Shown: positions 8,306 through 35,215, numbered from the stretch's first letter. The stretch: 64,000 nucleotides of DNA from an uncultured Acidobacteriota bacterium (GCA_963711505.1 CAVQEJ010000003.1:2131073-2195072), one strand, 5' to 3'. Made by a program: numbers and translations. The notes: generated by a model not told the origin, from the letters alone.

Positions 8306-8319
8306 TGTTCAGTTCGCGC

Positions 8320-8509
8320 GGGGCCCCACCCCCACGCGTTGCCGTCGCTCACGCTCCGGATCGTGTTATTGCCGATGTTGCTGCTTGCAGTGGCACCCCG
8401 GCCCCCCGCGCGTTGCCGTCGCTCACGCTCCGGATCGTGTTATTGCCGATGTTGCGCTTGCAGTGGCACCCCGGCCCCCCGCGCGTCGTCGTCGCTCACG
8501 CTCCGGATC
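8320..8509. repeat. Tandem 73-74 bp repeat (about 2.5 copies) with REP-like core
   Basis: CGCGTTGCCGTCGCTCACGCTCCGGATC at 8335, 8409 and (variant) 8482, separated by near-identical GTGTTATTGCCGATGTTGC(T)GCTTGCAGTGGCACCCCGGCCCCCC. Confidence 0.9.
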
Positions 8510-8573
8510 CTGCTACTCACGGCATTGCCGCTTTCACGGGCGGGCCGCACGGTGCCGGGGAACGTCCAGCCGT

Positions 8574-9635
8574 TCAGCGGCTGACGGACAGATCGCCGTG
8601 CACCGCCGCCGGCAAGGTCTCGAGATACGGGGCGCGGAACACGCCCCGCTCGGTGACGATGCCGGCCACCAGGCGGTGCGGGGTGACGTCGAAGGCCGGG
8701 TTGCGGATGTGGGCACCTTCCGGCGTGAGGCGCGTCGATCCGACGTGCGTCACCTCGCGCGCGTTGCGCTCTTCGATGGGAATCTGCGTGCCGTCGGGCG
8801 TCGCCAGGTCGATGGTCGAGGCCGGGGCGGCCACGTAGAAGGGAATGCCGTGTTCGTGGGCCAGCACGGCCACGGTATAGGTGCCGATCTTGTTCGCCAC
8901 GTCGCCGTTGGCGGCGATCCGGTCGGCCCCGACCACGACGAGATCGATCAGCCCCTGGCGCATCAGCGCGCCGGCCATGTTGTCGGTGATGACGGTCGTG
9001 TCGATGCCGTCACGCACCAGCTCCCACGCCGTCAGCCGCGCCCCCTGCAGGAACGGACGCGTTTCGTCGGCGAGCACGGTCACCTGCTTGCCCTGTTCGA
9101 CCGCGCCGCGGATGACCCCCAGTGCGGTGCCGTAGCCCGCGGTGGCGAGCGCGCCGGCGTTGCAGTGGGTCAGGATCCGCGCGCCGTCGGGCACGACCGC
9201 CGCCCCGTGCCGCCCGATCGACCGGCAGCTCTCGACGTCCTCGTCGTGAATCCGCGCCGCCTCGGCGTCCAGCCGATCCTTGATCTGGTCGACTGACTCG
9301 CCGGCGCCCGCCCCATCGGCAAATGTCTTCTTCATCCGGTCGATCGCCCAGAAGAGGTTCACGGCCGTCGGCCGCGTCGCCGCCATCAGCTCGCAGATCT
9401 TGTAGAACTCGCTCGCGAGCTTCTGGGTGCCACTGGCCTTGCTCTTCCGCACGCCGAGCGCAATGCCCAGCGCGGCGGCGACGCCGATGGCCGGTGCCCC
9501 GCGAATGACCATGGTCTTGATGGCGCGTGCCACTTCCTGCGCCGTGCGGCAGCTCACGTAGAGCTCGACGGAGGGCAGCTTGCGCTGGTCGATCATGACG
9601 ATGGTGTCGCCCGTGCGGGAAATGGTCGGCAGCAT
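8574..9635 (-). CDS. mtnA: S-methyl-5-thioribose-1-phosphate isomerase
   Basis: [62 protein letters not shown]. Confidence 0.96.
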
Positions 9636-9651
9636 GGGTTAAATGATAACA

Positions 9652-9692
9652 GGGGATCGGGATTGGGGATCGGGATTGGGGATTGGGGATTC
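9652..9692. repeat. Heptamer tandem repeat (GGGATTG/GGGATCG)
   Basis: ggggatcgggattggggatcgggattggggattggggattc. Confidence 0.75.
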
Positions 9693-9703
9693 GGACCGGC
9701 CGG

Positions 9704-10603
9704 CTAGGATCCTGCCGGCTCCCCGTCCTCCGGCCGCAACTCCGCAGCCGCGGCCGCCGCGTGCTGCGCCTCTTCGGCGAACCGCGCCAGAATCCGCTCC
9801 AGCACGGTCCCGAAGCGGTCGGCCGCCCGCTGCGCGGCGTCCATCACCTCTTCGTGGGTCAGGCGCTGCCGCCGCACGCCGGCGGCCGCATTCGTGATGC
9901 ACGAGATCCCGAGCAGCTCCATCCCCATCTGGCGCGCCACGATCGCTTCCGGCACGGTCGACATGCCGACCGCGTCGGCGCCGAGCATCCGCAGCGCGCG
10001 GATCTCCGCCGGCGTCTCGTAGCTCGGCCCCGACACGGCCGCATAGATGCCGCGCGGCAGCACCAGCCCGACCTCGCGCCCGGCGGCGGTCGCCAGCTGC
10101 CGGAGGCGTGGCGACCACGCATCGGTCAGATCCGTGAACCGCGGTCCGAAGCGATCATCGTGCGGCCCCGCCAGCGAATTCGCACCGGTCAGGTTCAGAT
10201 GATCGTCGATGATCATCAGCGCCCCCTGCGGATAGCTCGTATTGATGCCGCCGGCCGCATTGGTCAACACGAGGGTCTTCACACCCAGCGCGCCGAGCAC
10301 GCGGACGCCGAAGGTGACCTGCTGCGGATCGGCTCCCTCGTACAGATGCGTCCGCCCCGCCAGCAGGGCGACTCGCGCGCCCCCGCAGGTGCCCACCACG
10401 AGCCGTCCCGCGTGCCCCGGCACCGCGACGGGCGGCCAGTGCGGAATCTCGGCGTACGGCACGACGGTGGCCTCGCCGAGCCGGTCGGCGAACTCACCGA
10501 GTCCCGATCCGAGCACGATGGCGACGTCGGGAAACAGAGAGACGCGGGCACGGATGACGGCGACGGCCGCCATCACCTGATCGTAGAGATCGTGGACGGG
10601 CAT
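9704..10603 (-). CDS. punA: Purine-nucleoside phosphorylase (family 2, trimeric type)
   Basis: IVLGSGLG, GRTHLYEG, LTNAAGGIN, GPSYETPAE, VGMSTVPE; ATG overlaps nupC stop. Confidence 0.93.
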   Translation of the reverse strand: MPVHDLYDQVMAAVAVIRARVSLFPDVAIVLGSGLGEFADRLGEATVVPYAEIPHWPPVAVPGHAGRLVVGTCGGARVALLAGRTHLYEGADPQQVTFGVRVLGALGVKTLVLTNAAGGINTSYPQGALMIIDDHLNLTGANSLAGPHDDRFGPRFTDLTDAWSPRLRQLATAAGREVGLVLPRGIYAAVSGPSYETPAEIRALRMLGADAVGMSTVPEAIVARQMGMELLGISCITNAAAGVRRQRLTHEEVMDAAQRAADRFGTVLERILARFAEEAQHAAAAAAELRPEDGEPAGS

Positions 10604-12012
10604 TACAGCAGTATGCCGGCAATCGCCGCGGTAAGGAAGTTCGCCAGCGTGCCGGCCACCATGGCGAGCAAGCCCAGCCGGGCGAGATCGTGCCGCCGGT
10701 TCGGCGCCAGCGACCCGATGCCCCCGATTTCGATGCCGATGGATCCGAAGTTCGCGAATCCGCACAGGGCGAAGGTGGCGAGGGTGAACGTCCGCGGATC
10801 GAGGGCGCTCTTCAGCGTCCCGAGCTGGGCGTAGGCCACCAGCTCGTTGAGGGCCATGCGCGTGCCGAGCAGGTTGCCGATCGTGGCCGCCTCGTGCCAG
10901 GGGACGCCCAGGCTCCAGGCGATCGGCGCGAACACCCAGCCGAAGATCTGCTGCAGGCTGAGACCGGCGAAGCCGAGCACCGCATTCGTCATGGCGATGA
11001 GCGCCAGGAACGCGATGAGAATCGCGCCGACGTTCAGCGCCAGGCCCAGCCCCTCGAGCGTGCCCCGCCCGGCGGCGTCGATCACGTTGACGTCGGTCTT
11101 CTCCCGCCCGAGCGGCACGGTCCCCATCGTCCGCGGCTTCTGCGTCTCGGGCACGAGCATCTTGGCGATGAGAATGGTGCCGGGGGCCGTCATCACGACG
11201 GCCGTCACCAGGTGGCGTGCGCTGATGCCATAAAGAATGTAGGCCCCCATCATGCCGCCCGACACGTGCGCCATGCCCGACGTCATGACGGTCATCAGCT
11301 CCGACCGCGTCAGATCGGGCAGGTACGGCCGGATCGTGAGCGGCGCCTCGGTCATCCCCATGAACACGCTGGCGGCGACGTTCAGCGACTCCGCACCGCT
11401 GGCGCGCATCACCCGACGCATCCCCCAGGCGAAGGCCCGGACGATGGCGGGCAGCACGCCGAGGTGGTAGAGCACCGCCGACAACGCGGCGAAGAAAATG
11501 ATGGTCGGCAGCACCTGGAAGGCGAAGATGGCGCTGTACTGGGCGCCGGCCGGCCCGAGGGCGCCGGTCATGATGCGCGGCCAGGCGGACTTGTCCCCGA
11601 GCGGCCCGAACACGAATGCCGCCCCCACGTCGGCGAATCCGAGCAGGCTGCCGATGACGTCGCCGATCCGCTCGAAGATCCGCTGCCCGATGGCGGTCTT
11701 CAGCACGACCACCGCCACGGCGAACTGGAGGCCGAGCCCCCAGCCGACGGTCGGCCAGTGAATCGCCCGCCGATCGACCGAGCCGGCGTAGGCGATCGTC
11801 AGGATGACGACGACGCCGATGACCGACTGGATCCGCAGGGAACCACCCGCCCGGGCCGCCACGAAGGCCACGAGCGCGGCGCCCAGGGCGGCCGCGAAGA
11901 TGACGGCGTCGCGCCGGGTCAGCCGACTCGGCCGGAGACTCCACCCCACGGCGCCGGCCGGCGCGGCCGCGGCAGCCGCTTCGCCTTCTCCAATGGTCAC
12001 TTCCCCGTCCAT
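10603..12012 (-). CDS. CNT-family nucleoside:cation symporter (NupC/NupG-like)
   Basis: FAFQVLPTIIFF, FMGMTEAPL, NELVAY, FALCGFANFGSIGI. Confidence 0.92.
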   Translation of the reverse strand: MDGEVTIGEGEAAAAAAPAGAVGWSLRPSRLTRRDAVIFAAALGAALVAFVAARAGGSLRIQSVIGVVVILTIAYAGSVDRRAIHWPTVGWGLGLQFAVAVVVLKTAIGQRIFERIGDVIGSLLGFADVGAAFVFGPLGDKSAWPRIMTGALGPAGAQYSAIFAFQVLPTIIFFAALSAVLYHLGVLPAIVRAFAWGMRRVMRASGAESLNVAASVFMGMTEAPLTIRPYLPDLTRSELMTVMTSGMAHVSGGMMGAYILYGISARHLVTAVVMTAPGTILIAKMLVPETQKPRTMGTVPLGREKTDVNVIDAAGRGTLEGLGLALNVGAILIAFLALIAMTNAVLGFAGLSLQQIFGWVFAPIAWSLGVPWHEAATIGNLLGTRMALNELVAYAQLGTLKSALDPRTFTLATFALCGFANFGSIGIEIGGIGSLAPNRRHDLARLGLLAMVAGTLANFLTAAIAGILL

Positions 12013-12171
12013 GCGACCCCTCTCACCCGGCGCCGGCAGCCGGCCGCCCGCCAACGGCCGGGCTCTGCGGCCCGGCCCGCAGCCCCCGGCCCGACCGAGT
12101 ATACCCGTGGGCCGGCTGGACTTGATCGGCCGATAAGGGATATATCAGCCTCGAGTGTTCTCGTTGACGTC

Positions 12172-14401
12172 ATGACGCAGGCCCCCCAGATCTCCCCGGA
12201 AGTCGCGCGTGGTATGGCGATATTCGCCCGCGCCCTGGTGGCCGCCGCGCGCAACTGGACGCTCTATCCGCCCGAACATCCCGCCGTGGAAGCCTCGGTG
12301 AACCGGCTGGCGGAGGCGATTGCCGCGGCCACGTCCGGGGCCATCCTGTCGGTCGGGGCGACCCCCGATACCCTGCTCCTCCACGGCATCCCGGTGTCGG
12401 GTCGCGAACAGCAGCTGAGCGAGGCGGCCGCGCTGCTGCACGACCGCGACATCCTGCAGGTCACCTTCGCCGGCGAGGTGCCGATGGGCGCGCTGCGGCC
12501 GCTGCTGACCCTGCTGGCGCTCGACGAAGAGGCCCGGCGCACCCGCGGCGGCCCGGCGGCCATCTGGAACGCCGACGGCCATGCGTCGATCACGATCGAC
12601 CAGATCGACTACCAGAAGGTCCTCGAGGATCGGGAGGCCCCCGCCGATCCGAAGCGGCGTGACGACGTCTGGCAGGCGATCGCCCGGAACATCATCGACG
12701 GCAAGAAAGTCTTCGACGAGCAGGCCCAACAGCGCCTGCTCGAGATCGCGGGCGACCCGGGCGAGATCCTGGACCTGGCCGCGGCGGTCATGGCGCCGGG
12801 GCACGCGGCGGACGGTTCTCCGATGATCACGACCCAGGCGGCGACAGTGCTGGCCGCGTTCCACCGGCTGACGTCGATCGTGTCCGTCATGGCCGCCGAT
12901 CGCCTGCCGCAGGTCATTCAGAACCTCAGCGAAGCGGCCAGCCGGCTCGACCCGCACGTCGTCGTGCAGGTGCTGCAGTCGGCCGAGGAGGCCGACGAAG
13001 CGGTGCCCGTGGTGGGGCGGCTCGCGGGCGCGTTCGACGACACGCAGGTCGCCCGGCTGCTGGCCACCGCCCTGGCGGCCGAGGGGCAGGCCTCCGAACG
13101 GCTGGCGGAGGTCTTCAACACGATCGCGCCCGACACGGACCGCAAGCAGCGGGTCCTGACGCTGACCCGGTCGCTGCTGAACGAGAGCGACTTCGGCCGA
13201 TCGGGACAGTTCCAGGTGCTGTGGGCGTCGATGGAAGAGCTGCTGCTGTCCTACGACGAGAGTCCGTACGTCTCGGAGAGCTACCGCGCGGTGCTCGACG
13301 GCACGAGCACCCGGGCGCGGGCGATGGCCGAGCGCGACCTGCCGCCCGACCTGCCCGAGTGGCTCGAGACGCTGGATCGCGACAACGTCCGGGTGCTGTC
13401 GGTGACGCTGCTCATCGACCTGCTGCACCTGGAAGGCGACACGGCTCTCGGCGCCGACATCGCACGCGACCTGTCGGCGCTCGCCGAGGACCTGCTGCTC
13501 TCGGGCGACTACGCCGAGGTGGCACGCGTGACCGAGGCCCTGGAGCAGGCGGCCGGTCAGACGTCTGGCGGCCCCCTGCGGACGGCGGCGCGGCGGGCCC
13601 TCGACGACCTGGTCGACACGCTCGCGCTGCGGGAGATGGTGACGCTGCTCGGCGAACTCGCCCCGGAACAGATGACGGCGGTCGCGGCCATGAGCCGATC
13701 GATCGGCCCCAGGATGGTCGACGCGCTGCGCGACCCGCTGGCGACCGAGAAGGGCTCGCTCACCTGGACGCGCGCCGCCGATCTCGACGGTCGGGTTCGG
13801 CGCGGCAGCCGTCCCGCGTCTGGCGCCGCTGGCCGGTGACAGCCGCTGGGAGGTGCAGGTGGTCGCCGCCGAGCTGCTGGGCCAGCTCGCCGACCCGGCC
13901 GGCGTGCCGCTGCTGCAGGGCCTGGTGCGCGGCGGCCATCCCCGCGTCGCCCGGGCTGCCGTGGCGTCGCTCGCTGACATCGACGATCCGTCGGCGGCGC
14001 GCGCGCTGCACACGGTGCTGCGGGCGGCGACCGGCGAGGTGCGGCAGGCGGTGATCGATGCGCTCGTCTCGGATCCGGAGCCGCGCCTCGTGCCGATGCT
14101 CGTCGGGATCATCGGCGAGAGTCAGCCGCTCGGACGCGACCACGACGTGGTGCTGCAGACGCTCGGCGCCCTCGGGACGGTCGGCGGCGACCAGGCCGTG
14201 ACGGCGGTCCGCCGGGTGATGCGCTGGCGCAGCCTGCTGGCGCTGCGCAAGACCCGCACGCTCGCGCAGACGGCGGTCGACACCCTCGTGCAGATCGACA
14301 ACGACGCGGCCCGCCAGGCGATCGGCGACGCCGCCACTTCCGGTCATCGGGCGCTGCGTCGGGCGGCCCGCCACGCCCGTGGCCGCACCCGGACGGGCTA
14401 G
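12172..14401 (+). CDS. HEAT/ARM-repeat protein 1 with N-terminal LY...HP domain (frameshift near 13790)
   Basis: MTQAPQ...AARNWTLYPPEHPAV...; C-terminal HEAT-like repeats (AAELLGQL, VARAAVASL, VRQAVIDAL, LQTLGALG) in next frame. Confidence 0.75.
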
Positions 14402-14408
14402 GGACCGC

Positions 14409-15762
14409 ATGGAGCCCAGACGCGCTGACGAGATGGTCCGGCGGCTCGCTGCGGCGCTGCGCGCGGTCGAGCTGTACTCGGCCGCCCATCCGCTCGTCCA
14501 GCGGAGCGTCGGCACGCTGACGGCCACCTGCCTCGACGCGCTGCAGGCCGCCCCGACCGTCACGATCGGCTTCATCGGCGACGAGGTCGTCGTCGACGAT
14601 GTCCGGCTGACGAAGTCGTCGGCGTCGCTGGCCGGCTTCGTTCGCGGCCTGCGCGACCGGGAGATCGAGAAGATCACGATCGCCCGCGGCGTGTCCGCCG
14701 AGGAGTTCCGGGCGTTCGTTCAGATCCTGGCCGACCGCTCGTCGCGCGTGCCCGTCGCCGACCGGATCGCCCGGGACGCGCGCCACATCACCGTCGGCCG
14801 CCTCGTCATCGACGACGACGAGGAGAGCCAGGTCGGCATCGCCGCGGCTCGCCGCGTGTACCGGACGGCCGTCGAGACCGCCGAGACGCTGTGGAACCAG
14901 GCGAAGACCGGTGAGCAGCCCGACCCGCGTTCGGCCCGGAAGATCATCGAGAGCCTGGCGCGGCTGGTGAACGAGGACCGGACGTCGCTGATGGCCCTCA
15001 CGGCCCTGAAGCGGTACGACAACTACACGTTCACGCACATGGTGAACGTGTCGGCCCTGGCCATGGCACAGGCGCGGGCGCTCAACCTCGAAGGACCGCT
15101 GCTGCGCGAGTTCGGCTTCGCCGCCCTGATGCACGACATCGGCAAGGTGAACACGCCGCTGGAGATCCTGAACAAGCCCGACCGGCTGACCGGCGAGGAG
15201 TTCGCGATCATGAAGCGGCACGTCGATCGACGGCGCGCACATCCTGCGGCGCACGCCGGAGATGCCGGCGCTCGCCCCGATCGTCGCCTTCGAGCACCAC
15301 CTGAAGCAGGACCTGAGCGGCTATCCGGAGAACATCGGGTCGCGCCGGCTGAACCTGTGCACGACGATCGTCAGCATCGCCGACGTCTTCGACGCGCTGC
15401 GCAGCAACCGGCCGTACCGCGAGGGGCTGCCGACCGCGCGGATCCGGGCGATCATGCACGAGCAGGGCAACCCGGCGTTCCACCAGACCCTGCTGAAGCG
15501 CTTCGTGAACCTCGTCGGCCTGTTTCCGGTCGGCAACCTGGTCCGCCTGAGCACCGACGAGCTCGCGGTCGTCACGGCCGAGCACCCCGGCGATCCGTTG
15601 CGGCCGCAGGTGAAGGTCGTCACCGACGCGAAGGGCGAGCCGCTCGAGGAGCCGGTGCTCGCGAACACGTGGGAACGCGACGCCCGGGGCGAGCATCCCC
15701 GCGCCGTCGTCGAAGCCGTCGACCCCGAATCGGTGGATCTCGATCCGCTGAAATTCCTGTGA
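14409..15762 (+). CDS. HD-GYP cyclic dinucleotide phosphodiesterase 1 (frameshift near 15225)
   Basis: YTFTHMVNV, LMHDIGKV, FEHH...SGYP, IADVFDALRSNRPYR. Confidence 0.9.
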
Positions 15763-15782
15763 GGCCGCCGCACATCGAGCCG

Positions 15783-18035
15783 ATGCCGGAGCTGAACGAC
15801 CCCGCCGTCCCGCCGCCGCTCGCGCCCGAAGAGGCCGAGCAGCTGGTCGAATTCGCCCGTGCCTGCCGGGCCGCGGCACGGGCCGTCGCCCTGTACCCCG
15901 GCGGCCACCCCGCCATCGGCACGGCCCTGGGCCGGCTGGCCGATCTCACGCGCCGGACTCTCGCCGGGGGCCCGCTCGCGCTCGGCGTCCTGCCCGACGA
16001 CTTGCACCTGGAAGGACGGGGCCTCGATCGCGGCGAGGCAGCGGTCGGGGAACTCGCAGCCCTGCTGCACGCGCACGGCATCGGCAGCCTGACGATTCAG
16101 CCCGGCATCGCCGAGTCGGCGTGGCAGCCGTTCTTCGCGCTGCTGAGCCAGTCGCCCGACGCGGTGCGTGCCGAAGGCGGCTTCGCCCGGGCGTGGCTGA
16201 CCACCGGTGAGCAGGGACTGGCGATCACCGAGATCGATTACGCGGACGTACTGCGCGAACGTGGCGGCGGCGAACACGTCGGCTGGGAGGCCATCGTCGC
16301 CGGCTGTCTGCAGGGCGACGCCCCGCTCGACGCCGCGGCGCTGGCGTCGCTGTTCCTCGCGCCCGACGCCGCGCGCCGGTTCAGCGAGCTCGCCGCGCTC
16401 GTCGACCGCCGCGCCGCAGACGGCGGTGCCGCCGCCCGGACCTCCGCCCTGCAGCGCCTGCTCGCGGGAGTGGCCGGCGTGCCGCGCGACAGCGCCGCCG
16501 TCGCGGGCGCCATCACCGACAGTGCCGGCGCGGTGCTGACGGAGCTGCCGGCCGATCTCACCCTCGCGCTGCTCGACGGCGAGACGGACCCGGACGCCGC
16601 ACCGGCGGCCGGCGGCGTGCTGCAGATGGCTCCGGAGACGGCGCTCAGCCGCTTCGTCGCCCGGGCCGTGATCAACGACCGATCGGCGAGCGCCCGGCTG
16701 GTGCGTGCCTTCCGGTCGCTCGTCCCCGACGACGACCGCCGCCGGCGCCTGCTGCGTCTCGTGCGCGAGGAGGTGGCGGCGTCACCGCTCGGAGACGAGG
16801 CCGGTTTCGAGGAGCTGTGGAACGAGGTGTCCGGGCTCCTGAGCTCCTATTCCGACTCGCCGTTCGTCGGCGACGCCTACGGCCGTGAGCTGTCGGCTTC
16901 GCACGCGCAGGCCATCGAGGTCGAACAGATCCACGACGACGCCCCCGAGCAGATCGCCACGTGGCTGCGGACGGTGGCGCCCTCGGCGGTCCGCACGCTG
17001 GATCAGCGCCTGCTGCTCGATCTGCTGGCCATCGAGGCGGACGCCGATCGCTGGGCCGGCATTGCGGCCTCGGTGCTCTCGGCCGTCGAAGACCTCCTGC
17101 TCGTCGGCGACATCGGCGCCGCCCGCCAGCTGATCGGGGCGCTGGCCACCGAGGCCGCACCCTCGGGCCGCGCGAGCCATCAGGGCGCGGCGGGCGCGGC
17201 CATCGAGCGGCTCGTCGGCGGCGCGATGATGTCGCACACGGTCGCCCACCTGCAGACGATGGACGATGCGACGTTCGAGCAGGTCAAGGCGCTGTGCCTG
17301 GAGCTCGGCGACCGGATGGTGCCGGCGCTGGCCGACGCCCTCTCGGTCGAGGACCGCGGCCGCGCGCAGCAGCGGCTCACCGCGCTGCTGCTCGCCTACG
17401 GCGCAACCGGCCGCCAGGCCGTCGAGCGGCTGAAGATGTCGGCGAGCGCCTCGGTGCGGCGGACGGCCGCGTACCTCCTCCGGGCGTTCGGCGGCAGCGA
17501 GGCCCTGCCCGATCTCGCCGCGCTGCTCGAGGACGAGGAACCCGCGGTCCAGCGCGAGGCCATCCGCGGCATTCTGGCCATCGGCAGCGAGGCCGCCTAC
17601 GCCGTGCTCGGACGGGCGCTGGCCGAGGGGACGCCGCAATCGCGCGACCGGATCATGGGCGCGCTCGCCTCGCTGCGCCAGGAGCAGCCGGCCCCGCTCG
17701 TCAGCTATCTGGTCGAGACGCTGGATCATCGCGGTCTCAGCGACGTCTCGCTGCGCGCCATCGAGCTGCTCGGCGCGCTCGGCGCCCCGTCGGGCGTGCC
17801 GGCGCTGACGCAGGCGCTGTACCGCGGCGAGTGGTGGGCGCCCCGACGGACGGCGATGCTGCGCACGGCCGCGGCCGGCGCGCTGGCCCGGATCGATCAC
17901 GCCGACGCCCGGCGGGCGCTCGACGACGCCGCCGGCCGCGGCCCACGGGGCGTCAGGGCGGCCGCGCGCGGGGCGTCGGGGAGACGGACCGGACGTAGAA
18001 CGGAGAACGGAGAGGGGCGTCGGAAATCGCAATGA
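15783..18035 (+). CDS. HEAT/ARM-repeat protein 2, paralog of 12172-14401
   Basis: MPELND...AARAVALYPGGHPAI...; shares IDY..VL..R, LL.SY..SP.V...Y and EDLLL.GD blocks with paralog 1; C-terminal HEAT repeats. Confidence 0.78.
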   Translation: MPELNDPAVPPPLAPEEAEQLVEFARACRAAARAVALYPGGHPAIGTALGRLADLTRRTLAGGPLALGVLPDDLHLEGRGLDRGEAAVGELAALLHAHGIGSLTIQPGIAESAWQPFFALLSQSPDAVRAEGGFARAWLTTGEQGLAITEIDYADVLRERGGGEHVGWEAIVAGCLQGDAPLDAAALASLFLAPDAARRFSELAALVDRRAADGGAAARTSALQRLLAGVAGVPRDSAAVAGAITDSAGAVLTELPADLTLALLDGETDPDAAPAAGGVLQMAPETALSRFVARAVINDRSASARLVRAFRSLVPDDDRRRRLLRLVREEVAASPLGDEAGFEELWNEVSGLLSSYSDSPFVGDAYGRELSASHAQAIEVEQIHDDAPEQIATWLRTVAPSAVRTLDQRLLLDLLAIEADADRWAGIAASVLSAVEDLLLVGDIGAARQLIGALATEAAPSGRASHQGAAGAAIERLVGGAMMSHTVAHLQTMDDATFEQVKALCLELGDRMVPALADALSVEDRGRAQQRLTALLLAYGATGRQAVERLKMSASASVRRTAAYLLRAFGGSEALPDLAALLEDEEPAVQREAIRGILAIGSEAAYAVLGRALAEGTPQSRDRIMGALASLRQEQPAPLVSYLVETLDHRGLSDVSLRAIELLGALGAPSGVPALTQALYRGEWWAPRRTAMLRTAAAGALARIDHADARRALDDAAGRGPRGVRAAARGASGRRTGRRTENGEGRRKSQ

Positions 18036-18133
18036 GCGATGGGCAACGGGCAATGCTCGGAACTCGATGCCCGGCGCTCGGGACGAAGACGTCGGACACA
18101 GGACGTTGGACGTTGGACGTTGGACGCAGGACG
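17995..18133. repeat. Heptamer tandem repeats (GAACGGA; GGACGTT)
   Basis: gaacggagaacggaga and ggacacaggacgttggacgttggacgttggacgcaggacgt. Confidence 0.7.
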
Positions 18134-18139
18134 TAACCC

Positions 18140-19510
18140 ATGCCTCCTGACACCCGGTTACCACAGTCTGCTGTCGAGGAACTGCCGCGGCGTCTCGCGG
18201 CGGCGCTCCGTGCGTCGCAGCTGTACACGCCCGGCCATCCGATCATCGCCCGCAACACGGCGGCGTTCGGAGCGAGCCTGTCCGAGATCCTCGCGCGCCA
18301 GCCGAAGGCCACCCTCGGCCTGATCGGCGAGGAACTGGTCGTGCAGGGCGTGCCGGTCGCCCGGGCGGCCGAGACGCTCGGCGACCTGATGAAACGGCTG
18401 CGCGTCGCGGGCGTCGAGCGGATGACGTTCGACCGCGGCGTCACCGACGAGGAACTGACCGCCTTCGTGGAGGCGCTCGCCGGCCTGACGGGACAGGCGG
18501 CCGAGGACACGGGCACGCTGGCCTTCCCTCACATCCGCGTGGGCCGGATCGAGGCCGATCGGCCTGGCGCGGCGCCCGACCAGACGGGCACCGACACGAT
18601 CCGGCAGCTGTACGGCGACGCCGTCTCGGTGGCCGGCGCCGTCTGGCGGCAGGCGGGCGGCGGCCAGGCACCGGACCCGGCGGCCGTGCGGGCGGCGATC
18701 GACGGCCTGGCCCGGGCCGTCGCGCGGAACCGGACGGCGCTGGTCGCCCTGACGGCGCTCAAGCGGTACGACGACTACACCTTCACGCACATGGTGAACG
18801 TCTCGATCCTGACGATGGCGCAGGCGCGGAGCCTTGGCATCGACGGCCCGCTGCTGCGGGAGTTCGGGCTGTCCGCCCTGATGCACGACATCGGCAAGGT
18901 CCGGACCCCGACCGACATCCTGAACAAGCCCGACGCGCTGACGCCGGCCGAGTTCGCGGTGATGAAGCGGCACGTGGTCGACGGCGCCGAGATCCTGCGC
19001 GAGACGCCCGAGATGCCGGCGCTCGCCCCGATCGTGGCGTTCGAGCACCACCTGCGGCTCGATCGCACGGGCTATCCGAACGACGTCTCGCGCTCGTCGC
19101 TGAATCTGGGCACCATGCTGTGCAGCATCGCCGACGTGTACGACGCGATGCGATCGCAGCGGAAGTACCAGGAGGCCTTCCCGACCGATCGGATCCTCGC
19201 CGTCCTGCAGCGCAACGACGGCCAGCAGTTCGACCAGCAGCTGGTCCGGCGCTTCACGCAGCTGATCGGCATCTATCCGCCGGGCACGCTCGTGCGGCTC
19301 GACACAGGCGACATCGCGATCGTCCGTCAGGTGCACGCCGCCGATCCCCGGCGGCCGAGGGTCCGGGTCCTGTTCGCCCCCGACGGCACGCCGGTGGCGG
19401 CGCGCGATCTCGCGCTGTGGGAGGCGGCCGACCGGGGCGCCTCGCCGTCCGCGATCGTCGCGCCGGTCGACCCGGCCGGCTTCGACGTCGACCCGCTCGC
19501 CCACCTGTGA
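18140..19510 (+). CDS. HD-GYP cyclic dinucleotide phosphodiesterase 2 (RxxQ variant)
   Basis: YTFTHMVNV, LMHDIGKV, FEHH...TGYP, IADVYDAMRSQRKYQ; intact ORF. Confidence 0.92.
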   Translation: MPPDTRLPQSAVEELPRRLAAALRASQLYTPGHPIIARNTAAFGASLSEILARQPKATLGLIGEELVVQGVPVARAAETLGDLMKRLRVAGVERMTFDRGVTDEELTAFVEALAGLTGQAAEDTGTLAFPHIRVGRIEADRPGAAPDQTGTDTIRQLYGDAVSVAGAVWRQAGGGQAPDPAAVRAAIDGLARAVARNRTALVALTALKRYDDYTFTHMVNVSILTMAQARSLGIDGPLLREFGLSALMHDIGKVRTPTDILNKPDALTPAEFAVMKRHVVDGAEILRETPEMPALAPIVAFEHHLRLDRTGYPNDVSRSSLNLGTMLCSIADVYDAMRSQRKYQEAFPTDRILAVLQRNDGQQFDQQLVRRFTQLIGIYPPGTLVRLDTGDIAIVRQVHAADPRRPRVRVLFAPDGTPVAARDLALWEAADRGASPSAIVAPVDPAGFDVDPLAHL

Positions 19511-19678
19511 TCGTCGCCCGCCGGAGGTGCGGGCAATGATCGGCTGCAAAAGGGGTGCGGCAGCCGCCGGGCGTCTGTTATCCTTGGCGGACGATTTTTC
19601 GATCGCAGGCGCGCTCCGTCCCCGCCCCTCCGGCTCCAGGGGCCCGTCGGCCGCGGCTGCTTCCTGGAGACACGTTCG

Positions 19679-21322
19679 ATGAAATGGCGCGTGCTCGTAT
19701 CGGTGACGGCTGTCGCCGCCCTGTCGATCCTGTCGACACTGTCGCCCCTGGGGGGCGTCCGGCCGTCGGCGCAGACTCCGGCCATCGCCCGGTCCACGGC
19801 GGTGGCCACCACCCGGCAGTCGCTCGGGGTGTGGGACGCCCGGGTCGACAGCATGCTGTCGGGCGGCCAGCTCGATATCGGTCGCACCCAGACTGACACG
19901 GTGCTGCCGGGTCGCGAGCACGTGCGGCTGGACCAGAAGTACCAGGGGCTGCCGGTCTTCGGCGGCCAGCTGGTGCGGCAGTTCGACAACGGCACCGTGG
20001 TCAGCATCTTCGGGCGGTACTTCCCGAACATCGACATCAGCACCCAGCCGGCGATCTCGGCGACGAGGGCGGCCCAGGCGGCCGTGGCCGCGCAGGGCAC
20101 CGGCGCGGTGGCGTCGGGCGATCCGGTGCTCGGCGTGCTGCCGCTCCCCGGGTCGCGCTACGTGCTGGCGTGGCGGGTCGACGTGCGGAGTCCGTTCGAC
20201 ATCGAGCGGTACTACGTCGACGCCCGCAGCGGCGCGGTCGTCCACAAGGTCAGCCGGGTCGTGGCGGAGCAGGCGTCACCGGCCATCGGGGTCGGCACGG
20301 GCGTGCTGGGCGAGCAGGAGAAGATGAGCGTGAACCTGAGCGCCGGGACGTATCAGGCGGTCGACGTGCTGCGACCGGCGGCGCAGTTCACGCTGACCTT
20401 CGGCGGCAGCATCAGCCGGTTCAACGACTTCTTCACGAACGGCCTGGTCTTCTCGTCGGACATCGCGACCGATTCCGACAACACCTGGACCGACGGCGCC
20501 GTCGTCGACGCCCACGCCTTCGAGGGGATGGTCTACGACTACTACTACAAGGTGATGGGCCGGCAGGGGTTGGACGGGGCGAACCGCCAGGTGATCGGCA
20601 TCGTGCACCCGATCGACCGGGCCGACGCCGGCCGCGTCAGCTCGACGGTCCGCGACACCTACATCAACAACGCGCTGTACCTGGGCGACGGCTACACGCT
20701 GTACGGTGACGGCGACGGCACGCACTTCACCTACCTGTCCGGCGCCCTCGACATCGTCGGCCACGAGCTGACGCACGGGGTCACCGACTACACGTCCCAA
20801 CTGGTCGAGCAGGACGAGTCGGGCGCGCTGAACGAGGCGTTCTCGGACATCATGGGAACGGCGATCGAGTTCGACCTGCAGCCGGCCGGCACCGGCAAGG
20901 GCAAGGCCGACTGGCTGATCGGCGAGGACGTGACGCTGCAGTCGCCGGGCTACATCCGATCGCTGGAGGATCCGCACGCCAACGGCTATCCCGATCACTA
21001 CAGCCTGCGCAAGTACATCGGGACCGACACCGACAACGGCGGGGTCCACTACAACTCGACGATCGTGAGCCACGCGTTCTACCTGGCCGTGCACGGCGGC
21101 ACCGACCGCGTGTCGGGCATCACCGTGCAGGGGGTCGGCATGGACAAGCTGCAGGAGATTGCGAAGATCTTCTACCGGGCCTGGACGTACATGCTGATCC
21201 CGGACGCACAGTTCATCGACGCCCGGAACGGCACCTTGCAGGCGGCGGTTGACCTGTACGGCCCGGGCAGCAACGAATACAACCAGGTGAAGCAGGCCTG
21301 GGACGCCGTGGGAGTCCAGTGA
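19679..21322 (+). CDS. M4 family (thermolysin-like) secreted metallopeptidase
   Basis: Signal peptide, FTP/PepSY-like propeptide, HELTH, ALNEAFSD, GGVHYNS. Confidence 0.93.
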   Translation: MKWRVLVSVTAVAALSILSTLSPLGGVRPSAQTPAIARSTAVATTRQSLGVWDARVDSMLSGGQLDIGRTQTDTVLPGREHVRLDQKYQGLPVFGGQLVRQFDNGTVVSIFGRYFPNIDISTQPAISATRAAQAAVAAQGTGAVASGDPVLGVLPLPGSRYVLAWRVDVRSPFDIERYYVDARSGAVVHKVSRVVAEQASPAIGVGTGVLGEQEKMSVNLSAGTYQAVDVLRPAAQFTLTFGGSISRFNDFFTNGLVFSSDIATDSDNTWTDGAVVDAHAFEGMVYDYYYKVMGRQGLDGANRQVIGIVHPIDRADAGRVSSTVRDTYINNALYLGDGYTLYGDGDGTHFTYLSGALDIVGHELTHGVTDYTSQLVEQDESGALNEAFSDIMGTAIEFDLQPAGTGKGKADWLIGEDVTLQSPGYIRSLEDPHANGYPDHYSLRKYIGTDTDNGGVHYNSTIVSHAFYLAVHGGTDRVSGITVQGVGMDKLQEIAKIFYRAWTYMLIPDAQFIDARNGTLQAAVDLYGPGSNEYNQVKQAWDAVGVQ

Positions 21323-22128
21323 TGCGTGTACGTGCGATTGTCTCCGCCCTCGGCGTCGTGGTCCTGTGCGCCACCGGCGCCGCCGCCCAGACCCCGTCCG
21401 CCGGCGCGACGACCGCGGCCCCGAAGCCGGCCGCCACGGCCGCGCCGTCGGCGTGGGGCGCCAACATGGTCCGCCTGAGCCTGAACGCCGGCATCCAGGG
21501 CGGCGCCTCGGGCGTCAGCCAGAACTCGACGCTCACCATCTACGCGGAAAACGCGCCGCTGAACGTCAGCTACGGCAACAAGTCGGCGCCGCTGTTCGAC
21601 GGCGCGATCGACGTGCACGTCCACGGCCGCTTCGGCGTCGGCGTGGCGATCTCGTACGCGAAGGCGAAGGCGGACGGCCAGGTGCAGGCGCAGATCCCGA
21701 GCCCCTTCTACTTCAACCAGCTGCGCACCGTCAGCGGGACCGCCTCCGCCCTGCAGCGGACCGAGGTCGGGACGCACATCCAGGCCCTCTACCTGCTGCC
21801 GGTCAACGACCGGTTCGACGTGATGCTGAGCGGCGGCCCGTCGATCATCTACGTCGAGCAGGATCTCGTCAGCAGTGTCAACTTCACCGAGAGCTACCCC
21901 TACGACACGGCCACCTACGCCAGCGCCGGCCTGGCCCGCGTGAAGAAGTCGGGATTCGGGTTCAACGTCGGGGCCGACTTCACCTGGCGGCTCACCCGGA
22001 CGATCGGCGTCGGCGGCCTCGTCCGGTTCACCCGGGCCAGCGTCGCCCTGCCGCTGAGCGGACAGCCGTCCGTCACGGTGCAGGCCGGCGGCATCCAGGC
22101 GGGCGGCGGCATCCGGTTCATGTTCTGA
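21322..22128 (+). CDS. Outer-membrane beta-barrel protein
   Basis: Signal peptide, alternating amphipathic strands, C-terminal GIRFMF; start overlaps peptidase stop. Confidence 0.75.
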   Translation: MRVRAIVSALGVVVLCATGAAAQTPSAGATTAAPKPAATAAPSAWGANMVRLSLNAGIQGGASGVSQNSTLTIYAENAPLNVSYGNKSAPLFDGAIDVHVHGRFGVGVAISYAKAKADGQVQAQIPSPFYFNQLRTVSGTASALQRTEVGTHIQALYLLPVNDRFDVMLSGGPSIIYVEQDLVSSVNFTESYPYDTATYASAGLARVKKSGFGFNVGADFTWRLTRTIGVGGLVRFTRASVALPLSGQPSVTVQAGGIQAGGGIRFMF

Positions 22129-22141
22129 GGCGCGGCCCGTC

Positions 22142-22531
22142 ATGGCGACTGCCCCGCGGCGCCCGCGTCCCGCCTCAGCCGATCGTTTCACCTCGCGCGT
22201 CCTGACCGTGGTCCGGCGGATTCCGCCGGGCCGGGTCGCCACCTACGGCGATATCGCGCGGCTGGCCGGCCGGCCGCGTGCCTGGCGGGCCGTCGGCAAC
22301 GTCATGCGCACCTGCCACCGCCCCGACGTGCCCTGCCATCGCGTCATCGCCGCCGGCGGACGACTCGGCGGCTATGGCGGGAACGAAGGGCTGAAGCGGG
22401 CCCTGCTCGTCGCCGAGGGGGTCGCGGTGTCCGGTGGGCGGATCAGGCAGCTCGGCGAGGTGCGATGGCCCGCGACGGCGTCCGTCGCCGCCCGTCCCGC
22501 CGGGGGGGCCGCGCGGCGTCCCCGGCGCTGA
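22142..22531 (+). CDS. MGMT/Ogt-family alkylated-DNA repair protein (single domain)
   Basis: IPPGRVATYGDIA, RAVG, PCHRV active-site motif. Confidence 0.88.
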   Translation: MATAPRRPRPASADRFTSRVLTVVRRIPPGRVATYGDIARLAGRPRAWRAVGNVMRTCHRPDVPCHRVIAAGGRLGGYGGNEGLKRALLVAEGVAVSGGRIRQLGEVRWPATASVAARPAGGAARRPRR

Positions 22532-22546
22532 TCGCGCCACCGCGCG

Positions 22547-22573
22547 GGAACCTTCCCTGGCCGCCGTCCGTCA
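22547..22573 (+). promoter_or_regulatory. Putative ECF sigma autoregulatory promoter GGAAC-N17-CGTC
   Basis: GGAAC 22547-22551, CGTC 22569-22572, about 105 bp upstream of the ECF sigma gene. Confidence 0.5.
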
Positions 22574-22676
22574 CCAGAACCAGCAGCCGGCACGGCCGGC
22601 CCCCCGGAACCGCCCTTTTTTCGGAGCCGCGGCAACGCGACCGGCCGGCGGCCCCGTCTAAGCTGACAGGAGACAC

Positions 22677-23240
22677 GTGAGAGCGGCAGATGCAGAGCTG
22701 GTCGCCAGGTGCCGGAACGGCGATCTGGACGCCTTCGAGGAGCTGTACAGGCAGCACTCGCCACGCCTCTACAGCGTGGCGAGCCGGATGGCAGGCACCT
22801 CGGCCGATGCCGAGGACCTCCTGCAGGAGATCTTCCTCCAGGCGCATCGCAAGCTCGGCACGTTCAAGGGCGAGTCGGCGCTGGCGACCTGGCTCTATCG
22901 GCTGGCCATGAATGTCTGCCTCGACTTCGTCCGGAGCCGCCGGGCGCGCACCGACCGCCTCACCGACTCGCTCGACGACGATCGGCCGGGCGCGGTCCCC
23001 TCGCCGCAGACGCTGCCGGCCAACGGCGTGGCCCGGCTCGATCTGGAACGGGCGGTTGCAGGACTGCCCGACGGCTGCCGGGCCGCCTTCCTGCTCCACG
23101 ACGTGGAAGGCTTCGAGCACCACGAGGTCGCGTCGATTCTGGGTGTGAGCACCGGCACCTCGAAGTCGCAGGTGCACAAGGCACGGATGAAGATCAGAAC
23201 CTATCTCGCCAGACGCCAGACTGCGGGGGCGAGTGACTGA
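22677..23240 (+). CDS. ECF RNA polymerase sigma factor
   Basis: DAEDLLQEIF, TWLYRLAMN, region 4 HHEVASILGVSTGTSKSQVHKAR. Confidence 0.93.
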   Translation: MRAADAELVARCRNGDLDAFEELYRQHSPRLYSVASRMAGTSADAEDLLQEIFLQAHRKLGTFKGESALATWLYRLAMNVCLDFVRSRRARTDRLTDSLDDDRPGAVPSPQTLPANGVARLDLERAVAGLPDGCRAAFLLHDVEGFEHHEVASILGVSTGTSKSQVHKARMKIRTYLARRQTAGASD

Positions 23241-24027
23241 CATGACGAGCTGCGATCGATACAGCGAAGCGATCGGCGACTACGTGGACGGCACGCTCGA
23301 CGAGCGGGCCGGACGCGAGCTCGAGCTGCACCTCGCCGGCTGCCCGTCGTGCCGGGCCCTGGTCGCCGACCTGCGGCAGATCCGGGACACGGCGCGGCAG
23401 CTCGAACCGATGGAGCCGCCGGCCCGTGTCTGGACGGCCCTGGCGCAGCAGATCGCGGCGGACCGTGCCGCCGCCGCTCCGGTGCGACCGGCGGGCGGCC
23501 GGCGATCCGGACTGGCGGCCTGGTTGTCGCCGGCCTGGCAGACCGGACTGGCCGCCGCGGCGGTCATTGCCGTGATCACCGTGACGGCGTCGATCGTCTG
23601 GCTGATCGAGCGGCCGGGCGGCATGCCGGCCGGTCCGGCCACGGCGAGCACCTCGGCACCCGCGACGCCGGAATCGGCGGGCCCGGCAACGGCCGAGTCG
23701 GTGGCCGGCGAGCTGAAGCAGGCCGAGGGGCACTACCAGAAGGCGATCGAGGGCCTCCAGCAGATCGCCAAGGACGGCGAGGGGTCGCTGGACCCGAAAG
23801 TGGCCGAATCGCTGCAGAAGAACCTCGCCATTGTCGATCAGGCGATCGCCGACAGCCGGGCGGCGCTTCAGCAGCAGCCGACGAGCGAGCCGGCCCAGGC
23901 GAGCCTGCTCGACGCCTTCCGGACGAAGGTCGGCCTGCTGCAGGAGACCATCTCGCTCATCAACGAGATGCGGAAGGGCAACCAGGCCGGTGCCGCCCGC
24001 ATCATGCAAGACATGAAGAAATCCTGA
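23233..24027 (+). CDS. Zinc-finger (zf-HC2) anti-sigma factor
   Basis: HLAGCPSC (HxxxCxxC), one TM helix, overlaps sigma gene stop. Confidence 0.88.
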   Translation: MTDMTSCDRYSEAIGDYVDGTLDERAGRELELHLAGCPSCRALVADLRQIRDTARQLEPMEPPARVWTALAQQIAADRAAAAPVRPAGGRRSGLAAWLSPAWQTGLAAAAVIAVITVTASIVWLIERPGGMPAGPATASTSAPATPESAGPATAESVAGELKQAEGHYQKAIEGLQQIAKDGEGSLDPKVAESLQKNLAIVDQAIADSRAALQQQPTSEPAQASLLDAFRTKVGLLQETISLINEMRKGNQAGAARIMQDMKKS

Positions 24028-24035
24028 AACGGACC

Positions 24036-25058
24036 ATGACCATGATTCTCAGTCAGCGGTTTGCAGTCGTCTACGTCGCGGCGGTCGCAGGGCTCCTCGT
24101 CGTTCCCAGCGGGTCCCTGCCGGGCCTGCCGGGCACCGGCCGCGCCACGCTGCGGGCGGCCGGCGCGGCGCAGGACCGATCGGCGGACGATCAGGGCGCT
24201 CGGGTCAGCCGCACCATCAAGGTCGGCCGGAACAGCTCGCTGACCGTCTCGAACCTCTCCGGCGACATCTCGGTCACCGGCGGCCGCGGCAGCCAGATCC
24301 GGGTCGAGGCGGTCAAGCGCTCGGGGCGCGGCCTCGCCAGCGGGACGCGGCTCGAGGACGTCCGTGTCGACGTGGCCGAGCACGGCGACCGCGTGGAGGT
24401 CCGGACGCTGTACCGCGGGGGCAACACCCACGTCTCGGTCGACTACACCATCACCGTGCCGGCCGATGCGGCGGTCTACGTCCGCTCGGTGTCGGGCGAC
24501 GTCAAGGTGGCGCAGGTGCAGGGCGAGACGCGGGCCGAGAGCGTCAGCGGCGACGTCTCGGTCACCGGGGTCAGCCATCTCGACAAGGCGAGCTCGGTCT
24601 CGGGTAACGTCACGCTCACCAATGCGGCCTCCGAGGGCGACCTGTCGACCGGCAGCGTCAGCGGCAACGTGACCATCCACGGGCTGAAGGCCGGTGGCCT
24701 CGATCTGTCCTCGGTCAGCGGCGATCTGAACGTGAGCGGGCTCACCTGCCCGCGCGTGAGCGCCCGGACGGTCAGCGGCACGTTCAGCCTCGAGGGCCCG
24801 CTCGCCAGGAACGGCCGCTACGAGATCTCGTCGCACTCGGGCGACATCCGCCTGCGCCTGGCCGGCAACACCGGCTTCGAGCTGAACGCGTCGAGCTTCT
24901 CGGGCGACATCGACACCGACTATCCGATCACCATGCGCGACACCGGCAGCGAAAGCGGCCGCCGCTCGCGTCACGCCATCCGCGGGACGTTCGGGGATGC
25001 GAGCGCGCTGCTGAGCATCCGCACGTTCAGCGGCAGCATCTCGCTCCGCCGGCAGTAA
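24036..25058 (+). CDS. DUF4097/adhesin-like beta-strand repeat protein
   Basis: Signal peptide; repeated SVSGDV/SVSGNV motifs; typical third gene of ECF operons. Confidence 0.85.
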   Translation: MTMILSQRFAVVYVAAVAGLLVVPSGSLPGLPGTGRATLRAAGAAQDRSADDQGARVSRTIKVGRNSSLTVSNLSGDISVTGGRGSQIRVEAVKRSGRGLASGTRLEDVRVDVAEHGDRVEVRTLYRGGNTHVSVDYTITVPADAAVYVRSVSGDVKVAQVQGETRAESVSGDVSVTGVSHLDKASSVSGNVTLTNAASEGDLSTGSVSGNVTIHGLKAGGLDLSSVSGDLNVSGLTCPRVSARTVSGTFSLEGPLARNGRYEISSHSGDIRLRLAGNTGFELNASSFSGDIDTDYPITMRDTGSESGRRSRHAIRGTFGDASALLSIRTFSGSISLRRQ

Positions 25059-33567: not shown

Positions 33568-34578
33568 TCAGCGCGACGCACCGTCCGGCACCGGTGGCGG
33601 CTCCGCCACCGGCCGTTCCGATTCCTCGTCCCGCCGACGCGCGGCGAGCACGCCGTTCTTCCCGGTCTGTTTCACCGCGTACATCGCCGCGTCGGCCGCG
33701 CTCACCAGCGCCTCGGCCGTGTCGACCACGTCGGGCAGCGTGGCCACGCCGACCGAGGCCGTCACGCGGATGCCGGGCCCGTCCTCCAGGAACGGCGTCG
33801 CCTCGATCCGCGCCCGCACGCGCTCGCCGACGGCGTGCGCGCCCTCGGCGTGCGTCTCGGGCAGGACCACCGCGAACTCGTCACCGCCGAAGCGGGCCAC
33901 CACGTCCGTCTCGCGAGCGCTGCCCCGGATGACCGCCGCCACTTCCACCAGCGTCCGGCTGCCGGAGAGGTGCCCGAATCAATCGTTGACGGTCTTGAAC
34001 CCGTCGAGATCGATGAAGAGCAGCGACAGCGGCGAGCCGCTGCGCGCCGCCCGCTTGCTCTCGCGCCGGAGCGCCAGATTCAGGTAGCGGGAGTTGTAGA
34101 GCTGCGTGAGGTCGTCGGTGACCGACAGCGCCTCCAGCCGCTCGCGCTGCAGCGCGTGGTCCAGCGCTGCGGCCGCCGGCTCCAGCAGCGTGGCCATCGC
34201 CGCCACCAGGCGCCGGCCCGGACGCGGCGGACGCGCCGAGGACGTGCCCGCCAGCCCGACGAGTGCTCCCACCGTCCGATCGCGCCCCGGCAAGGGGAAG
34301 GCGACGACCGTCGCACTCGTTGTATCGGACACGCGGGCGTCGTCCCGCAGATCCGCTGTCACAAATTCCTGTCCGTGGTCGACGACCCAGGCCGCCACGG
34401 CCTCGGCGGCAGGCCCCAGCCCGCCGCCCAACTCCCGCCCGGCCAGCGTGATCAGCCGCCCCGACGGCTCGGCGGCCACCACAGCCCAGGCCGGCGCCGG
34501 CAGGGCCGACGCGAGCTGCCCGAGCACCGCATCGGCCACGCCGACGGCGTCGGCCGGCGCGTGCACGGCCCGCAACAT
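33568..34578 (-). CDS. GAF-like + GGDEF nucleotide cyclase, Hypr-type signature, in-frame TGA at 33979-33981 (start uncertain, may be further upstream)
   Basis: [34 protein letters not shown]-site, RFGGDEF; ORFs 33979..34926 and 33568..33948 are in the same frame. Confidence 0.85.
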
Positions 34579-35215
34579 CGCCACGAGCGCCGTGCGTCCG
34601 GCGAACCGGGCGCCCAGCGCCGGTGTCGACGGCCGCCACAGCCCCGCCGGATCGGCGGCCGCCTCAACGCGCGGTCTGCTTACTCGTCCCGCTGACAACG
34701 CACTGTTCTCGAATGTCCCCGATTCGACGGCCTCCACGCCGGGCCGGCGACCTCGCGCACGTCGCGCCGATCTGCCGGACAAGGCCGGTGAAGCCACCGT
34801 GGATGCGGACGACAGATTGTTCCAGGAAGCTCGCGCAGGCTGATTGTGCGGGGGCCGATCCGGATTCTTGGTCAACCGCCCTCGCAACAGTCCCGGCGCC
34901 CGCCCGGCGGGTGTGCGCTTCCGCACCCGACGCCGGTGGCCCCGCGACCCTCATCCCGCTAAGTTCTTCTATACCACGCAAATAATAACATAGGGGTGAC
35001 AAAATTGACGTCTTGTTGACACCAGACCGTCAGCGAAACCCGCCGCGGACCGCCCGGCACCGCCCGGCCGGATGTAACTGCTTGCAACAACGTAACTTCA
35101 TCGCGTACGATGAGGTGAAAGTTTCGACGTCATCATTCCGTCCCTCGCCGCGGACACGGCCGTCCGGCCGGGCTCGCGGGGAGAAGGACGGACAGGATCA
35201 GGAGCCGTTGCTGCC

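Follow-up and report, generated by a model that had tools for sequence, protein, structure and literature searches.

Two adjacent HEAT/HD-GYP gene pairs in an acidobacterial genome share an uncatalogued N-terminal domain and differ at a cyclic-dinucleotide specificity residue

Cyclic-dinucleotide enzymes of the HD-GYP, GAP, and Hypr kinds are already known. PmxA, which has an RxxQ motif, is selective for cGAMP (3',3'-cyclic GMP-AMP), and the Q518R substitution switches it to cyclic di-GMP (c-di-GMP); among six further enzymes with an Rxx(Q/N) motif, five cleaved cGAMP, three of them selectively and two along with c-di-GMP (Wright et al., 10.1101/600031). The same R/Q specificity rule is given by Galperin and Chou (10.1101/2021.11.05.467447), according to whom the N-terminal domain is undefined in many HD-GYP proteins and action via a dedicated partner is known for few. 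The defining marks of Hypr GGDEF enzymes are Ser at GacA S347/S348 and an Asp-containing GGDEF motif, whose cGAMP-favoring state has Tyr at the cross-dimer position (PMC6456294). Here we describe a locus at 12172-19510 of a 64,000-nucleotide stretch of DNA (hereafter the window) from an uncultured Acidobacteriota bacterium (GCA_963711505.1, CAVQEJ010000003.1:2131073-2195072) that, judged by its sequence relationships, consists of two tandem copies of one conserved module, in which a gene for a HEAT protein is paired with one for an HD-GYP phosphodiesterase. The four proteins share an N-terminal domain, referred to here as LYxxxHP after its motif, that has no counterpart in the accessible part of the text of Galperin and Chou.

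The four genes follow one another on the plus strand with intergenic gaps of 7, 20, and 104 nt (table 1) and form two paralogous pairs, as had been claimed in a first-pass annotation made from the sequence alone. The HEAT proteins encoded by genes 1 and 3 (H1 and H2) are 31% identical across 528 aa, and the HD-GYP proteins encoded by genes 2 and 4 (D1 and D2) are 49% identical across 268 aa; a Pfam scan placed HEAT_2 repeats in the C-terminal part of the former and HD/HD_5 domains in the latter. The same annotation saw an alignable block at all four N-termini, and profile searches in both directions confirm it across the two protein classes. A hidden Markov model (HMM) built from the two HEAT N-termini recovered the HD-GYP N-termini with E values of 4.5e-9 and 1.6e-6 among the 41,656 open reading frames (ORFs) of the genome, and an HMM built from the two HD-GYP N-termini recovered those of the HEAT proteins with E values of 7.5e-6 and 3.5e-4, whereas none of these ORFs beyond the four operon genes passed either search. 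The domain comprises ~135 residues with one LYxxxHP motif per gene, and an alignment of 77 copies from both protein classes revealed that its Tyr and His are invariant and its Leu and Pro nearly so.

The LYxxxHP domain could not be assigned to a described family, in agreement with the first-pass annotation. No Pfam or NCBIfam family was found for any of the four N-termini, and a PDB sequence search with the domain profile returned nothing under E 0.02. An AlphaFold2 model of the D2 domain (predicted local distance difference test score [pLDDT] 91.7, predicted template modeling score [pTM] 0.87) starts with a helical hairpin whose loop bears YxxxHP; a beta-hairpin comes next, and then helix, strand, helix, and a final strand. 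A Foldseek search with this model gave no match at E ≤0.001, and in a wide structural search of 48,161 chains the top score, Z 6.2 for 71 aligned residues at a root-mean-square deviation of 3.3, belonged to an efflux chain that is unrelated, a result that does not by itself prove a new fold. An Atlas search with the H2 domain returned unnamed clusters only. Homology to DUF3391, suggested by a sub-threshold Atlas match (0.76), was rejected after hhalign comparison with 18 DUF3391 sequences gave probabilities of 0.4% and 0.2%; consistent with this, neither the 77 domain sequences (at E ≤1, with 25 families listed) nor the four operon proteins matched PF11871 (DUF3391), while a PF11871 search of the genome itself was empty with an equally silent control and is uninformative. 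Pfam and NCBIfam scans placed no REC, GAF, or PAS domain N-terminal to HD-GYP, as the first-pass annotation had also stated; a NosR model covers the catalytic part only. The model of H2 (pLDDT 91.5, pTM 0.54) has a helical middle domain between the N domain and a solenoid, the latter resembling generic HEAT/ARM structures only, and the same scans matched no family to the helical middle region of the HEAT proteins.

The metal-binding and catalytic set of an HD-GYP enzyme is complete in D2 (H217, H249, D250, K253, H278, H303, H304, G311-Y312-P313, and D332), all of these residues are present in D1 across its two frame pieces, and they are invariant or nearly so among 115 aligned enzymes. D1 and D2 are very probably active phosphodiesterases, as the first-pass annotation had assumed. 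Tyr213 of D2 aligns to E185 of PmGH (the chain numbers used in that alignment being the paper numbers plus 6), with a shift of one residue possible, and Tyr is found in 36 of 36 order-level sequences; it is preceded by Asp in D2 and by Asn in D1. The two enzymes differ in the Rxx(Q/N) specificity motif, which is present in D2 (RKYQ) and not in D1 (RPYR), and the difference is maintained among relatives: every one of the 22 D2-type enzymes read has Q, and every one of the 13 D1-type enzymes has R. By the rule of Wright et al., a preference of D2 for cGAMP is likely.

Acidobacteriota, Nitrospirota, and one deltaproteobacterial phylum all conserve the arrangement of a HEAT gene with an HD-GYP gene after it. 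In a set of 175 loci, a domain-bearing gene is located directly upstream of 143 of the 146 domain-bearing HD-GYP genes, the others comprising one gene without room and two exceptions. Because the majority of these loci were retrieved through HEAT queries this count is biased; in 60 loci chosen by domain-profile match, all 28 HD-GYP genes have such an upstream gene. The gene neighborhood, which the first-pass annotation had singled out as bearing on its idea of a HEAT/HD-GYP complex, is thus conserved.

H2 was matched in 31 of 41 relatives. Among 35 loci, the full H1-D1-H2-D2 order is found in 10 and is cut by contig ends in 2 more; the remainder have mostly H2-D2 alone, and H1-D1 alone occurs in one. 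In a phylogenetic tree of the domain (199 rows with Nitrospirota thinned to every sixth locus, obtained by a quick search over few columns), the D1 group is sister to D2 with a Shimodaira-Hasegawa-like approximate likelihood ratio test (SH-aLRT) value of 99, and the H1 group to H2 with a value of 92, which indicates that the whole module was duplicated once in the host order; NCBI labels of close homologs identify this order as probably Vicinamibacterales (Acidobacteriota). The outgroups in this tree carry both specificity residues. H-type and D-type domains fall mostly into separate groups, suggesting that they diverged long ago. Each enzyme paralog stays with its own HEAT paralog: the 36 intact pairs (loci L021-L055) comprise 13 of H1 with R, 21 of H2 with Q, 1 Q pair that is nearer to H1 by BLAST, and 1 with an unreadable motif, and the Q-partnered HEAT domains map without exception (22/22) to the H2 clade of the tree.

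Outside this locus the domain is abundant. Its profile matches 9,212 clusters at 50% identity with E ≤0.001, and 4,184 with E ≤1e-10; it is present in 87 of 251 genomes of its own phylum, in 93 of 201 genomes from the phylum of a deltaproteobacterial metagenome-assembled genome, probably Desulfobacterota, and in 80 loci that are mostly labeled Nitrospirota. Proteins of 1,180-1,480 aa with the architecture GGDEF, AAA_16 (STAND-like), one or two copies of LYxxxHP, and HEAT repeats have canonical GGDEF signatures (L097, L125, L206-L209, and L211-L214), and the domain is also fused through HEAT repeats to PilZ or to cNMP-PilZ (L119:3956-6574, L210:6077-11053, and L215:4920-7673). Frequently it occurs as two tandem copies. 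Solo or tandem domain-HEAT genes without HD-GYP are followed by a HisKA-HATPase histidine kinase gene at three loci (L089, L095, and L120). Given these associations with GGDEF-STAND, HD-GYP, and PilZ, the domain accompanies all three classes of cyclic-dinucleotide signaling proteins (synthases, hydrolases, and receptors), and LYxxxHP is a large uncatalogued domain family. Individual loci show further arrangements: L206 has two GGDEF-AAA_16-domain-HEAT genes in tandem, L098 has a frameshifted gene of this type immediately upstream of a HEAT/HD-GYP pair, and the PilZ fusions of L210 and L215 are sited upstream of a DnaB-like helicase gene. At L051:5857-7092 (minus strand), a HEAT-type N domain and an HD-GYP catalytic domain share one frame, which may reflect natural gene fusion, a deletion, or an artifact of assembly.

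One of the seven GGDEF matches in the genome is a Hypr-type gene 14 kb downstream of the operon and immediately upstream of mreB-mreC and a penicillin-binding protein gene. It has Ser nine residues past the guanine-binding Asn (N-D-stop-F-G-H-L-S-G-S), FGGDEF with Asp, and Tyr rather than Arg at the cross-dimer position, together with a weak GAF-like match (E 0.0014), and is likely a cGAMP synthase by these signatures. The gene is conserved in ~30 of 41 relatives. Its Ser signature was found in 27 of 30 orthologous loci, the other 3 not being read by the pattern used, and the position of the TGA that interrupts it as assembled is a sense codon in the 26 relatives read. Of 251 genomes sampled within the phylum, 132 show the Hypr pattern, suggesting that cGAMP signaling is widespread in Acidobacteriota, and the strict RxYQ pattern is present in 14, of which 13 have both. 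This co-occurrence fits a model with two substrates and lends it weak support.

Taken together, these data are best explained by a mechanism in which each HEAT protein would bind its cognate HD-GYP enzyme, probably through the shared N domains, and would control or position it by activation, inhibition, or localization, with copy 1 (RxYR) removing c-di-GMP and copy 2 (RxYQ) removing cGAMP. Structure prediction for one pair, in which alignments of the H2 and D2 N domains served as input, yielded a score of 0.35 (runs 0.23, 0.45, and 0.35) against 0.00 for the best control, with at least 69% of contacts agreeing between runs and a partner pLDDT of at least 79. The mark applied is reached by 116 of 157 solved complexes and by 2 of 215 mismatches, and at 0.60 or below by 18 solved complexes and both mismatches. 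The model thus gives weak support to domain-domain docking of H2 and D2, and tandem copies in one chain suggest that the domain pairs with itself. We consider a physical complex of the H and D proteins probable and a contact through the shared domains somewhat short of an even bet, whereas the arrangement as a whole, with two matched HEAT-HD-GYP pairs bound via the shared domain and D1 clearing c-di-GMP and D2 cGAMP, appears to us evenly poised. The fusions to GGDEF-STAND cyclases and PilZ receptors in other bacteria suggest that LYxxxHP may serve as an address tag of cyclic-dinucleotide signaling. A more far-reaching and rather unlikely version would make LYxxxHP a homotypic address domain of new fold that wires GGDEF-STAND, HD-GYP, and PilZ circuits onto HEAT scaffolds across phyla, and the operon two insulated channels; if true, such channels would be a natural way to keep c-di-GMP and cGAMP apart. 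With its neighboring sister enzymes, one on each side of the R/Q switch, the locus offers a ready test of this separation and a lead to cGAMP signaling in Acidobacteriota.

The reading frames of H1 and D1 are not open as assembled because each contains one extra base (~13785 in H1 and ~15225 in D1) relative to two same-genus genomes, in both of which the two genes are intact. The first-pass annotation, whose gene order holds, had noted neither these breaks nor the R/Q difference and the nearby Hypr-type gene. To place these breaks in context, 20 stretches were taken from one same-genus genome; 144 genes were called in them, and this assembly has an ortholog of 114; frameshifts affect 20 of these 114 orthologs, with 28 per 48,537 aligned residues. 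Broken genes in this assembly, which has an overall rate of ~1 frameshift per 5 kb of coding sequence, are thus to be read with caution. At this rate ~1.4 frameshifts are expected for an operon of such size in any case, which makes assembly error the simplest reading of the breaks and probably the correct one. In addition, D1 is 92% identical to its same-genus ortholog before the break and 94% after it, with no drop past the breaks. Two DNA sequencing runs with small shares, and no RNA run, were listed for the organism; their contigs belong to relatives and fail to span the stretch, and one contig of low depth lacks the base at 15226. A methylation-like motif common to the three defects (13785, 15225, and the TGA at ~33980) was considered and dropped because motif counts gave no support.

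Several findings weigh against two matched pairs with separate substrates. There are 40 domain-bearing non-HD matches with downstream room that are not followed by an HD-GYP gene, revealing that the HEAT protein can exist without the enzyme. The pass of the complex model is of a kind more often wrong than right, one of the three runs fell below the mark, and both chains are homologous. RxxQ is not decisive, as two of the five active Rxx(Q/N) enzymes took both nucleotides (10.1101/600031); 11 of the 14 RxYQ genomes belong to one order and so are not independent cases of co-occurrence with Hypr, and the strict RxYQ pattern is missing from 119 of the 132 Hypr genomes. H1, D1, and the Hypr gene are all interrupted as assembled, and experiments on any family member were not found in the literature searched. 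The homotypic docking suggested by the first-pass annotation is retained for H2 and D2 at the level of a weak model. Because the domain is also found in HEAT proteins that have no HD-GYP neighbor and at the sensor position of GGDEF-STAND proteins, its role may instead be sensory or that of a wider hub. The shared domain could be a ligand or state sensor, with the loop Tyr and His forming a binding site, so that one signal is read by both the HEAT protein and the enzyme and no docking through the domain is needed. In STAND proteins the sensor follows the NTPase, which is where LYxxxHP and the HEAT repeats are found in the GGDEF-STAND proteins; the invariance of Tyr and His across both protein classes and the solo HEAT proteins, three of them upstream of a histidine kinase, point in the same direction, as does the fact that N-terminal domains of HD-GYP proteins are usually sensors (10.1101/2021.11.05.467447). 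However, the domain resembles GAF, PAS, or REC neither in sequence nor in fold, a sensor leaves unexplained why each enzyme paralog keeps its own HEAT paralog, and the complex model weakly supports a domain-domain contact; we regard this role as unlikely. Contact could instead be made by the HEAT solenoid or the helical middle region gripping the HD-GYP catalytic domain, with the shared domains dimerizing each protein. HEAT solenoids are protein-binding scaffolds, and that of H2 matches generic solenoids only; the large separation of H-type and D-type domains in the tree also fits such an interface, and strict gene coupling is compatible with any interface. Given that the weak pass of the complex model came from the two N domains alone and that tandem copies suggest self-pairing, we find this arrangement quite improbable.

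The assignment of two substrates can be doubted separately from docking, with which the doubt is compatible. Both enzymes may act on c-di-GMP or be promiscuous, and what the duplication would then provide is a second input or expression pattern, not a second substrate. Beyond the dual activity of some Rxx(Q/N) enzymes already mentioned, the acidobacterial Hypr GGDEF protein Cabther_A1065 makes more c-di-GMP (PMC6456294), and the c-di-GMP-I riboswitch (RF01051) was not found in the genome by a search whose control was also silent and which is, therefore, uninformative. Fixation of Q in D2-type and of R in D1-type enzymes and the cGAMP-favoring Tyr of the Hypr GGDEF in the window argue for distinct substrates, leaving a shared one possible but on balance unlikely. 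Finally, copy 1 (H1-D1) might be a decaying pseudogene pair with only H2-D2 functional in the host, as would be suggested by the frameshifts in both of its genes and by the many relatives with H2-D2 alone; this is very unlikely given the number of frameshifts expected from assembly error and the undiminished identity after the breaks.

Other features of the region were identified in the same analysis (table 1). Both HD-GYP enzymes have a C-terminal extension of ~80 aa (15505-15759 in D1 and 19250-19507 in D2) without a Pfam match, which is missing in Nitrospirota members and can be aligned to plasmid HD-GYP proteins. The 104-nt gap between genes 3 and 4 (18035-18140) exceeds that of most relatives and contains short GGACGTT repeats. 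Divergent genes upstream (7190-12054, minus strand), read from their translations as tsaD-, mtnA-, purine nucleoside phosphorylase-, and nupC-like, are kept in relatives, as are those downstream (19679-25058, plus strand), read in the same way as peptidase-like, outer-membrane, ogt-like, extracytoplasmic function (ECF) sigma, and anti-sigma genes. A promoter scan gave no sites, a single terminator-like site (19572-19593) is at chance level, and an Rfam scan of the window found one tRNA and nothing else.

Table 1. Positions of the four genes, their domains and motifs, and the Hypr-type gene, counted from the first nucleotide of the window
Feature	Position	Strand	Remarks
Gene 1, HEAT paralog H1 (~740 aa): N domain, helical middle, C-terminal HEAT repeats	12172..14401	+	Frame shifted ~13785
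H1 shared LYxxxHP domain	12190..12612	+	Limits approximate; motif at 12244
Gene 2, HD-GYP paralog D1 (~450 aa): N domain, HD-GYP, ~80-aa C-terminal extension	14409..15762	+	Frame shifted ~15225
D1 shared LYxxxHP domain	14421..14804	+	Limits approximate; motif at 14454
D1 specificity motif R-P-Y-R, c-di-GMP type with canonical Rxx(K/R)	15409..15420	+	Rule: Wright et al., 10.1101/600031
Gene 3, HEAT paralog H2 (750 aa, open frame): N domain, helical middle domain, alpha-solenoid	15783..18035	+	
H2 shared LYxxxHP domain	15825..16241	+	Limits approximate; motif at 15873
Gene 4, HD-GYP paralog D2 (456 aa, open frame)	18140..19510	+	
D2 shared LYxxxHP domain	18164..18550	+	Predicted model; motif at 18203
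D2 specificity motif R-K-Y-Q (RxxQ, cGAMP type)	19160..19171	+	Aligns to PmGH R314-x-x-K317
GAF-like + Hypr-type GGDEF gene, outside operon	33570..34640	-	In-frame TGA 33981-33979 as assembled; start codon not fixed

In the literature searched, which left most subscription journals outside, we found no description of the N domain, the HEAT partner, or an adjacent R/Q sister pair; the components can, however, be compared with known systems. The HEAT proteins have their C-terminal repeats in common with bacterial HEAT_2/PBS-lyase-type solenoid proteins, a likeness that does not imply lyase function, and differ from them in the N domain and the helical middle region without a family match. The Hypr-type GGDEF gene shares the Ser, GGDEF, and Tyr signatures with GacA of Geobacter and with the GAF-GGDEF protein GacB of Myxococcus xanthus, to which its weak GAF-like match may be compared; unlike these, it is interrupted by a TGA as assembled and located outside the operon, and its product is predicted only.

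Among HD-GYP enzymes, D1 and D2 resemble the Bd1817 family (DUF3391-HD-GYP; Bd1817 with PDB 3TM8, PA4108, and VC2497) in being soluble one-component proteins with an N-terminal domain of ~120-135 aa, linker helices, and HD-GYP. The structure 3TM8 matches residues 194-336 of D2 and is absent among the structural matches listed for the N-domain model. The N domain of Bd1817 begins with strands whereas LYxxxHP begins with helices and is not detectably DUF3391, and a HEAT partner of this family is not described in the accessible part of the text of Galperin and Chou (10.1101/2021.11.05.467447). Plasmid HD-GYP proteins are ~35% identical to the catalytic half of D2 and its C-terminal extension. The best solved relative of the D2 catalytic domain is PmGH (GAF-HD-GYP, PDB 4MCW/4MDZ; E 3.6e-25), with conserved metal ligands and GYP; D2 differs from it in the lack of GAF, in Tyr at the third-metal ligand E185 according to the alignment, and in KPD in place of KPG. 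With the GAPs (PmxA of M. xanthus, Bd2325, and Gmet_3476), D2 shares RxxQ at the position of PmGH R314-x-x-K317, and its genome has a Hypr-type GGDEF. PmxA is a membrane HAMP-HD-GYP protein (10.1101/600031), whereas D2 has the uncatalogued N domain, a gene for a HEAT partner, and an adjacent RxxR sister.

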